DNA from: an archaeon | GTDB lineage: Archaea > EX4484-52 > B79-G9 | Length of the DNA: 41,055 nucleotides | Direction: 5' to 3' | Assembly (NCBI GenBank): GCA_043813875.1 | Contig: JBDRKP010000039.1 | Coordinates: 1 to 41,055, forward strand | In this document: piece by piece, positions 19,513 through 39,134 of the stretch | Layout of the letters: every line of letters begins with the position of its first letter | Position numbering within the stretch: the stretch's first letter is position 1 | The notes under the pieces: generated by a model | Told to the model about the DNA's origin: nothing | Seen by the model: only the letters and a program-made list of their open reading frames with translations | The model's database searches: none | Made by a program: the position numbers and the translations under genes

Positions 19513-19696
19513 TATAGTTCATGTCGTTAAAAAATGGACAAATTGACCGAAAAACAAAACGACATTAACTAGATGTAAATGTCATCAGTCCATTTTGAGA
19601 TATGCTCAAAAGCCTGATACGTCAGGATCATGATTTTGAACGTAAGTTCAAAAGCTTGACACTCAAAGCCTTGAAAAAGTTATGACATTTACTATA
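19513..19696 (+). repeat. Dispersed modular hairpin element, copy 1 (MITE/REPIN-like or structured ncRNA)
   Basis: Ends TATAGT...ACTATA. Stem A TAGTTCATGTC/GACATTAACTA; stem B GTAAATGTCAT/ATGACATTTAC enclosing two hairpin pairs. Homologous to the elements at 27965 and 38579. Confidence 0.78.
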
Positions 19697-24485: not shown

Positions 24486-24598
24486 ATTTTTTATTGTACA
24501 TAAAGTATATTCCAAGACAATAAAAAAGCTTGAAATTCCCCAACAGCATCTAAATTTCATGATTTTTTATTGTACATAAAGTATATACAGGCAATAAA
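24486..24598. repeat. Two exact 25-bp direct repeats, each starting an inverted repeat
   Basis: ATTTTTTATTGTACATAAAGTATAT at 24486-24510 and 24562-24586. TTTTTTATTGT (24487) pairs with ACAATAAAAAA (24517). Confidence 0.8.
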
Positions 24599-24667
24599 TC
24601 AGTACACAAAAACTATATAAACCAAGAAAAATATAAAGAACTATTAATAATTTGGAGGTGCAATCAA

Positions 24668-27964: not shown

Positions 27965-28125
27965 TATAGTTGACATCGTTACCCATTGGACAAATATGGC
28001 CAATAAACCCATAGATGTCAATCTATTCTGGCGAATCCAAAAGATTCGCTGAATCCTAAAATTGCAAAACAATTTTAAGGATATGTAAAAGTCACATATT
28101 CCAAAAGGCTATGACTTTTACTTTA
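27965..28125 (+). repeat. Dispersed modular hairpin element, copy 2
   Basis: Stem A TTGACATC/GATGTCAA, one H1+H2 hairpin pair (28025-28080), stem B GTAAAAGTCA/TGACTTTTAC; ends TATAGT...ACTTTA. Confidence 0.75.
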
Positions 28126-30635: not shown

Positions 30636-31024
30636 GACCATCCACCTTTCCTTCTTTTATCCGCATCATTTCAATTTGATTGATCTGATTAGATTAGATT
30701 TAATATAATCGGATTGCTTTCATTTCCAAAAAAAATCAAAATCAATCAACCACATCTGGTTAAGTTAACCAGCATAATGGCAATAAAACTAATGCCAAAA
30801 TAAACTTTAAATATCTTTGCAAAACTGAACTTTTGCATTTTTTGCCTTGAGACACCGTATTTAAGCCATAGCAAATCGTTTTTAAAATAAGTTACGGCAT
30901 TACAATCCGTATGAACTGTTTCAATAATAATATACTGATTTAACTCTAAAAACGCAAACGGAAGGATACACACTCAAAATGGTAACAAAAACATTTATAT
31001 ATGTAAGTATGTATCTTAACTAAT

Positions 31025-31852: not shown

Positions 31853-32278
31853 ATGACCCACATTTTATTAAGTCATCACTATCCTAAGGAGTATAATCAT
31901 TGTATTACATTTAGATTAAAAGGAAAGGTTTATCATCTATGCGCACGGTGCTTAGGGTATTTTTCATCTTTCTTTATTTTCTTAGGGTTATACATCTTTA
32001 TTAATGAATATTTGCTACCTGTTGACGGAATGATTATCTATTTACTTCCTTCTTTTGCGTTTATTGATTGGGGTTTGACTAAGACTAAAATATATAATGG
32101 AAATAACCAGATAAGATACACAACTGGTTTTTTATTGGGCATCGCAGGTTCTAGATTGATTTTTTTGTTTTTTAACAACCCTTATAATTATGCCATATAT
32201 ATTAGTGTAGCAATATATTTTATGATAACTACAATCATAATTTATTTAAGCAAATTTTTATTGAAAGTGTCTAAATAA
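31853..32278 (+). CDS. DUF2085-like membrane protein
   Basis: LSHH, LCARCLG, P...IDWG and N..RY.TG.LLG motifs; about 4 TM helices. Confidence 0.72.
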   Translation: MTHILLSHHYPKEYNHCITFRLKGKVYHLCARCLGYFSSFFIFLGLYIFINEYLLPVDGMIIYLLPSFAFIDWGLTKTKIYNGNNQIRYTTGFLLGIAGSRLIFLFFNNPYNYAIYISVAIYFMITTIIIYLSKFLLKVSK

Positions 32279-32391
32279 CCTGAACTATTACATTTTTTGC
32301 CCTGAAAATGACGATTTGCGCCACAACACATAATTTCTAGAACAAGTTACGATATCACACGCGTCTACAAAAAAATATCTAAAAACAGCTC

Positions 32392-38402: not shown

Positions 38403-38475
38403 GGGCTCGTAGATCAGTTGGCAGATTGCTGCGTTCGCAACGCAGAGGCCGCGGGTTCGAACCCCGCCGAGTCCA
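38403..38475 (+). tRNA. tRNA-Ala(CGC), intronless
   Basis: Acceptor stem GGGCTCG/CGAGTCC with G3-U70, anticodon arm CTGCG-TTCGCAA-CGCAG, T-arm GCGGG-TTCGAAC-CCCGC, discriminator A. Confidence 0.96.
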
Positions 38476-38578: not shown

Positions 38579-38891
38579 TATAGTTCACGCCGTTACTACA
38601 TTAACAAATATAACCCAAATACAATAGGTGTTAACTATCCGGGCAAACCAAAGGTTTGCTGGATCCTAAAATCGCAAGGTGATTTTAAGGATTCTGGCAA
38701 ACTCTCGAGTTTGCTGAATCATAAAAATCGTAAAACGATTTTTAATGATCCGGGCGAATCTCAAAGATTCGCTGGACAGTAAAAATAGCATCTCTATTTT
38801 TACATGTATGGCAAAGACATTAGTCCATTTTGAACGTCAGTTCAAAAGCTTGGCATGTAAATGCCATGAAAAAGTTATGTCTTTGACTATA
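38579..38891 (+). repeat. Dispersed modular hairpin element, copy 3 (longest)
   Basis: Stem A TAGTTCACGCC/GGTGTTAACTA, three tandem H1+H2 units (starts 38637, 38691, 38748), stem B CAAAGACAT/ATGTCTTTG enclosing one hairpin pair; ends TATAGT...ACTATA. Confidence 0.82.
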
Positions 38892-38915: not shown

Positions 38916-39134
38916 ATGGGCAAAATTAACATTGAAGTGGAATTCGGCGAAAGCGCAGGCAAAGTCTGGACTGCACTGAACAGCAAAGGCGACAAATCAG
39001 CAACAGAGCTTGCAAAAGAGACAAAACTCAAACCAAACGACGTCTACATTGCACTAGGCTGGCTAAGCCGCGAAGGAAAAATCACGGCAATCAAGAAAAA
39101 AACCGGAATAACATACGGCCTTTCAGAGATATAG
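38916..39134 (+). CDS. Small winged-helix protein (DUF2582-like)
   Basis: GE.AGKVW.AL and ALGWL.REGKI motifs; AGGTGA RBS before ATG 38916. Confidence 0.82.
   Translation: MGKINIEVEFGESAGKVWTALNSKGDKSATELAKETKLKPNDVYIALGWLSREGKITAIKKKTGITYGLSEI

Follow-up and report, generated by a model that had tools for sequence, protein, structure and literature searches.

Small mobile elements with covarying end hairpins and stackable hairpin cassettes in a DPANN archaeon, probably derived from IS630

The window analyzed here is the whole of a 41,055-nucleotide stretch of archaeal DNA (contig JBDRKP010000039.1, forward strand), in which archaeal housekeeping genes are accompanied by a 3285-aa Ig-like gene. 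A first-pass annotation, made from the letters alone, had recognized three non-coding hairpin elements in it, and all three (E1, E2, and E3) lie where it had placed them, on the + strand. They are listed here with their parts and context, J and M denoting types of double-hairpin cassette.

19513..19696, + strand: element E1, with two M cassettes; pfkB on one side, the 3285-aa Ig-like gene on the other
24487..24562, + strand: M-type double hairpin standing free, after which a second unit begins
27965..28125, + strand: element E2, with one J cassette; located between a TATA-like box and the start of a radical-SAM gene
38403..38475, + strand: tRNA gene (Rfam RF00005, 65.3 bits), upstream context of E3
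38579..38891, + strand: element E3, both TA copies included (38579-38580 and 38890-38891); body of 309 nt
38579..38608, + strand: left terminal inverted repeat of E3, about 30 nt and imperfect; positions 6-13 double as the outer arm of stem A
38627..38638, + strand: inner mirror copy of the left end of E3, forming the 3' arm of stem A; the central junction begins here as well
38639..38692, + strand: junction cassette J1 of E3 (hairpins 38639-38662 and 38665-38690)
38693..38749, + strand: junction cassette J2 of E3 (hairpins 38693-38717 and 38720-38747)
38750..38807, + strand: junction cassette J3 of E3 (hairpins 38750-38775 and 38777-38806)
38810..38820, + strand: inner mirror copy of the right end of E3 (5' arm of stem B)
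38828..38869, + strand: cassette M of E3, in the loop of stem B (hairpins 38828-38847 and 38851-38866, flanking AGCT)
38870..38891, + strand: outer part of the right terminal inverted repeat of E3; 38877-38887 is the 3' arm of stem B
38916..39134, + strand: DUF2582 winged-helix gene, downstream context of E3

Cassette M of E3 splits the inner part of the right terminal repeat. The fold of E3 has z = -10.9 as DNA and -10.4 as RNA, equalled by none of 100 shuffles, and the opposite strand folded as RNA gives z = -6.7. Contigs from public sequencing runs cover E2 fully and E1 and E3 in part with zero differences, an agreement that only argues against an assembly artefact, as these runs are possibly the source sample itself.

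Other features of the window are recorded for their own sake. The segment 9577-19696, with the Ig-like repeat gene and E1, is an accessory insertion of about 10 kb: it is missing in the related genomes G002 and G005, where the ArgRS gene adjoins pfkB. A pair of 83-nt direct repeats with 71% identity (30822-30904 and 32277-32359) flanks three small genes. In an ortholog of the tRNA at 38403-38475 (L108, G004:C17), the T-loop is interrupted by about 30 extra nt, which may be a non-canonical intron.

The common plan described in the first-pass annotation is borne out: in E1, E2, and E3, TATAGT is followed by stem A, by 0, 1, and 3 junction hairpin pairs, and by a stem B with 2, 0, and 1 inner pairs, up to ACT(A/T)TA. 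The individual stems it had listed are likewise all present, with the qualifications that stem A of E3 includes one G-T pair and that the second-type inner hairpins of E1 are degenerate. To this account can now be added a terminal inverted repeat, the free stem-B cassette in the window (24487-24562), and about 80 copies genome-wide.

Reduced to its core, the element opens with TATAGT and closes with ACTATA; between these, a central CTATATG separates stem A, whose loop spans about 37 nt, from stem B, whose loop spans about 18 nt. We aligned 44 cores, of which 24 are distinct cores found in relatives and 20 belong to the 33 cores of 99-107 nt in the window's genome (G000). Pairing in the two local hairpins reaches 97.7% in this alignment, compared with 29-43% in slid controls, and 14 of the 18 pairs show compensatory double changes (140 double-change cells), which supports the covariation first noticed among three copies. 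The local-hairpin score is reached by 0 of 500 shuffles, a test that is inflated by the relatedness of the copies. The two ends also form an imperfect terminal inverted repeat of about 30 nt, paired at 75.5% over 29 end-to-end pairs versus 28-46% when slid, and its breaks fall mostly at positions that vary within the stems. Because local pairing (97.7%) exceeds end-to-end pairing (75.5%), each end fits its inner mirror copy better than it fits the opposite end.

Across 132 copies, perfect stems come in 15 variants for A and 16 for B, joined in 30 combinations, a tally in which a few B stems are mis-parsed. Imperfect and chimeric stems occur too, and some of these have multiplied, stems with one mismatch included. 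The earlier proposal that selection acts on a single-stranded fold rather than on sequence stands only in part: the stems covary, but sequence hardly varies at end positions 1-6 and 9, and covariation could arise without selection if one arm is copied from the other.

Long copies bear double-hairpin cassettes, with J at the central junction, K inside J, and M in the loop of stem B or at the junction, and 99 of 101 pattern matches lie on the strand of the element. The M cassette is found at 24 free sites and 22 times inside copies (0 in a shuffle); outside copies, J- and K-type patterns give few and weak matches, most of them coding. The free double hairpin at 24487-24600 of the window is one of about 24 outside MITEs, which are frequently tandem and apparently constitute a repeat family of their own. 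At two pairs of orthologous loci (L067/L085 and L103/L104, 93-95% identical), the same insertion is present with and without one J cassette, and it therefore follows that cassettes are gained or lost after insertion. An integron attC reading was set aside on inspection, as stem B has no inverse core.

Individual copies show further variation. A nested cassette at G000:C13:19321-19794 contains a paired palindrome, and the same type lies beside a Y1 gene in L025. The copy at G000:C70:6918-7662 (L206) holds in its stem-B loop, in reverse, a 123-aa ORF with no Pfam match, which is a passenger, together with other small hairpins.

The first-pass annotation knew three copies and proposed a covariance model scan for more. 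By BLAST, profile, and structure scans combined, G000 contains 78 complete copies of 84-745 nt (33.5% GC), a count that leaves out 12 partial copies and two others that a further copy interrupts. Nearly half (38 of 78) are no longer than 108 nt, four subfamilies comprise 46, 17, 12, and 3 copies, and location is mostly intergenic (crude ORF calls are overlapped by 5 of 78). A scan for structure only gives 45 genomic matches, against 0 in each of two local shuffles. With the covariance model of the 44 cores, matches appear in 21 of the 42 genomes that represent the phylum: all eight of the genus, at 21-88 matches each (80 in G000), six of the eight remaining family genomes, and 7 of 26 in other families. 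When the end pattern was sought among GTDB genomes, 67 of 78 loci were labelled Nanohalarchaeota or Nanohaloarchaea, and the others carried the labels Methanosarcinales (5), archaea (3), and bacteria (3), some of them possibly mis-binned. Searches of viral contigs with two patterns of the element and two IS630 queries found no matches, and plasmids and phages gave one chance-level match each (E = 0.9 and 0.3).

Comparison of sites shows that the element is mobile and duplicates TA on insertion. Empty sites, which the first-pass annotation had suggested looking for, were found for E2 and E3. E2 is absent from the orthologous region of G001, G002, and G005 and from a short stretch of G003. In G004, which lacks E3, the TATA-like box and the ATG are 62 nt apart, exactly the distance in the window once E3 is removed and one TA kept. 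Comparison of L058 with G000:C67 likewise reveals a single TA at the empty site, and TA stands at both ends of 73 of the 78 copies in G000. Subfamily S4 is intact at three sites; elsewhere its internal TA has been filled by an S2 copy in reverse or an S1 copy in forward orientation, each between two TAs. Two tandem copies on C53 have one TA in common, and three pairs of identical copies occupy different sites. With empty sites, TA duplication, and identical dispersed copies at hand, the non-autonomous mobile element that had been one of the candidates of the first-pass annotation is now well founded.

The target extends beyond TA. The flanks of 124 copies are partly symmetric, with C at -2 in only 2 and 3 of 124 (background, 16-17%), and favor A at -3, but they are lopsided at -6, where T is found in 90 of 124 left flanks versus 49 of 124 mirrored right flanks (P = 2e-7). 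Transcription-start targeting, a reading prompted by the positions of E2 and E3, is not general, as it applies to 3 of 77 copies. Damaged copies are seen as well. In one of them (G000:C14:23704-25800), a pair of adjoining transposase-like ORFs cuts the copy off close to its right end, and solo halves with stem A or stem B alone (L086; G000:C79 near 24425; G000:C64 near 20331) suggest occasional cutting or deletion at the central TA.

IS630 enzymes target TA, and it is with this group that the ends of the element can be linked. In G018, a genome of the same order and another family, a multicopy, frameshifted IS630 with HTH and DDE_3 domains is visible at 12 ends. Like that of the element, its left end starts with TATAGT, contains CCAAAAACCAA as its loop motif, and has an ATG near position 60; its right end resembles that of subfamily S2. 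With the first 6 nt excluded, its left and right ends are equalled or outscored by only 2 and 0, respectively, of 600 intergenic controls. Its copies lie mostly at contig ends, and one of them (L135:924-2003) appears to interrupt another ORF. Among metagenomic IS630 matches, 6 of 9 are relatives at 49-79% identity, and the nine visible ends of these six all open with TATAGT, although only 2 of the 9 ends rise above background (3 and 0 of 600 controls). The IS630 ends from G000 and from G005 stay within background (46-134 of 600 controls). A likeness between the left end of the G005/G006 IS630 and subfamily S3, seen by eye and in a lenient shuffle, was rejected when 54 of 600 natural controls scored as high with subfamilies pooled.

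No intact transposase of the TATAGT clade was found in 16 family genomes, which are 59-91% complete and in which repeats are often unassembled. The element model gives 0 matches in G018, and T stands at -6 in only 2 of 12 flanks of the G018 IS. For these reasons, the G018 IS630 is a relative of the partner transposase and not the partner itself. G000, which is 91.5% complete, has one IS630 with different ends and one IS200-like fragment. When contigs were aligned to a core, the sequence at their loose ends was known cassette or flank throughout, with no transposase start. On G000:C56, a left end is separated from a right end by 1.65 kb, but what lies between is an ordinary oxidoreductase gene, and the two ends seem to belong to two truncated copies. 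On G000:C20 (L218), two copies have between them an intact transposase-like ORF of 413 aa, presumably an ISAzo13-type transposase by its look, which has no TATAGT ends of its own.

Taken together, we consider it probable, at roughly three chances in four, that the family is an IS630-type MITE: gene-less, TA-duplicating, and likely both derived from and mobilized in trans by an IS630 transposase of the TATAGT clade. Such a transposase would bind the fixed end bases (positions 1-6, position 9, and a few inner ones) and insert the element at TA. The 103-nt core would combine the right end of the IS with its left end as far as about the start codon, an inner mirror copy having been added to both. 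The mirror copies may stay matched mainly through intramolecular template switching, with selection on folded single strands perhaps helping. The J, K, and M cassettes would be separate hitch-hikers at fixed sites and would spread from copy to copy by recombination or gene conversion.

It fits poorly with an IS630-type MITE that the local hairpins outdo the terminal repeat, as a transposase binding duplex DNA needs no such hairpins. We regard as unlikely a two-tier system in which an IS630-derived MITE moves only with its ends folded on their inner mirror copies and is both vehicle and landing pad for several families of double-hairpin cassettes; a further archaeal enzyme would insert these, always at the same sites and in the same orientation. 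To our knowledge, no single-strand step is known for IS630/Tc1 enzymes.

Distinctly unlikely, in our view, is that ends derived from IS630 are now moved as a folded single strand, in the manner of REPINs, by an HUH enzyme (Y1/RAYT-like) or another hairpin-reading enzyme cutting at TA, with the apparent TA duplication illusory. The near-perfect hairpins with conserved bulges at both ends, the 30 combinations of A and B stems among perfect-stem copies, the lopsided target, and the single strand preferred by the cassettes would all suit such a mover, and an HUH-handled REP-like system had been a candidate of the first-pass annotation. That candidate is disfavored by ends that fit the IS630 clade, by a single TA site that accepts either orientation, and by the multiplication of one-mismatch stems. 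The genes that it calls for are scarce as well: RAYT-like genes were not found in the 16 family genomes, of which only three have Y1 genes, IS200-like in look and not flanked by element copies, and G000 gave no match to IS110, TnpB, or reverse transcriptase. An Ssn-type gene was not seen, GIY-YIG matches being either long (UvrC-like by length) or weak, and the published Ssn motif has 0 matches inside copies.

It is more doubtful still that IS630 mobilizes the element while its hairpins are kept by selection on transcripts, for instance, through stabilizing or protecting neighboring mRNAs. Such a role has precedent in ERIC, Correia, and BOX elements, for which effects on co-transcribed RNA are described (in the parts of PMC2229807 and PMC3049150 that bear on them), and both E2 and E3 sit between a TATA-like box and a start codon. 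However, such a box lies 18-34 nt upstream in only 3 of 77 copies, against a background of 6%, and insertion sites are not conserved across species. G-T exceeds A-C among distinct stem types (22 versus 10; P = 0.05), but in cassettes the figures are 14 and 9 (P = 0.40), and one-sided (G-U) changes occupy only 5 of 792 stem cells compared with the 140 double changes. Read-through would be in sense for 27 copies and antisense for 39 (P = 0.18). Selection at the RNA level is thus weakly supported at best. A multicopy functional non-coding RNA, as the first-pass annotation had also entertained, is hardly credible despite strong covariation and low folding energy, since a mobile element is indicated by the empty sites, the duplicated target, the nesting, and the range of copy numbers (0 to 88), G-U pairs are few, orientation relative to neighboring genes is unbiased, only the tRNA reaches the Rfam gathering level in the window, and six cores gave a single sub-threshold Rfam match (E = 0.32).

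As a class, the element is ordinary selfish DNA; what is unusual is the combination of end hairpins with matched mutations and stackable inner hairpin cassettes. Its CIR-like two-arm architecture, the mover of which is given as unresolved in the account of PMC2229807, is here tied to IS630 ends and a proven TA duplication. A DPANN genome of 1.6 Mb can evidently bear about 80 MITEs with recent activity, which occupy 13.2 kb (0.8%) and in some cases lie in gene leaders, and many copies lie at contig ends in assemblies of these archaea. The 15 and 16 perfect stem variants form a natural data set for weighing selection against template switching behind hairpin covariation in mobile DNA, and a new mechanism would be at hand if movement does need folding or if an enzyme for the cassettes is found.

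In the searchable full-text literature, where most subscription journals are not represented, no description of this family was found. REP, REPIN, and BIME repeats, associated with RAYT, are sequence-tagged hairpins that form doublets and mosaic arrays. The ends of subfamily S2 may resemble pneumococcal repeats. MITEs as such are already known in archaea, including DPANN, and the family may be an unnamed entry in the MITE catalogue of PMC11602168. The literature considered also includes PMC10664404, PMC10969869, and PMC13343696.

The closest precedent for the link to IS630 is RUP of Streptococcus pneumoniae (IS630-Spn1), which also illustrates TA targeting by IS630 enzymes in the account of PMC2229807. 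As described there and in the relevant parts of PMC3049150, RUP is similar in being about 105 nt long, intergenic, and AT-rich, with TA termini, IS630-like terminal repeats, and about 100 copies. It differs, as outlined in PMC2229807, in being simple and folding end to end, whereas in our element the folding partner of each end is an inner mirror copy, and a matching IS was detected only in another family of the order. In shape, the element is closer to CIR1-4 of Caulobacter and Brucella, which the survey section of PMC2229807 presents as about 110 nt long and intergenic, with TA termini and two independent stem-loop arms joined by a linker. The same listing gives them GANTC and no terminal repeat and leaves their target duplication and mover unresolved, whereas our element, compared by description only, has a terminal repeat, a TA duplication, and a link to IS630. 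Correia/NEMIS of Neisseria and ERIC of enterobacteria share with it the character of TA-flanked MITEs with size classes set by an optional internal segment; they are depicted in PMC2229807 as one end-to-end stem, and covarying inner mirror copies do not figure in that depiction.

For the J, K, and M cassettes, a fair analogy is offered by REP/REPIN/BIME repeats and by Ssn-related motifs (as introduced in PMC11893778), with the difference that here neither a RAYT-like nor an Ssn gene was found and the copies have no Ssn motif. BOX of streptococci comes nearest in modularity: according to the sections of PMC3049150 on its structure, it has terminal repeats, a target duplication, and independently folding internal modules in variable number (67-637 bp), and one site can differ between strains in module number. 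BOX modules, by that account, are of one type and form a tandem array at one site, whereas the element described here accepts several unrelated double-hairpin cassettes, nested at several fixed sites, one type of which also stands free in the genome.
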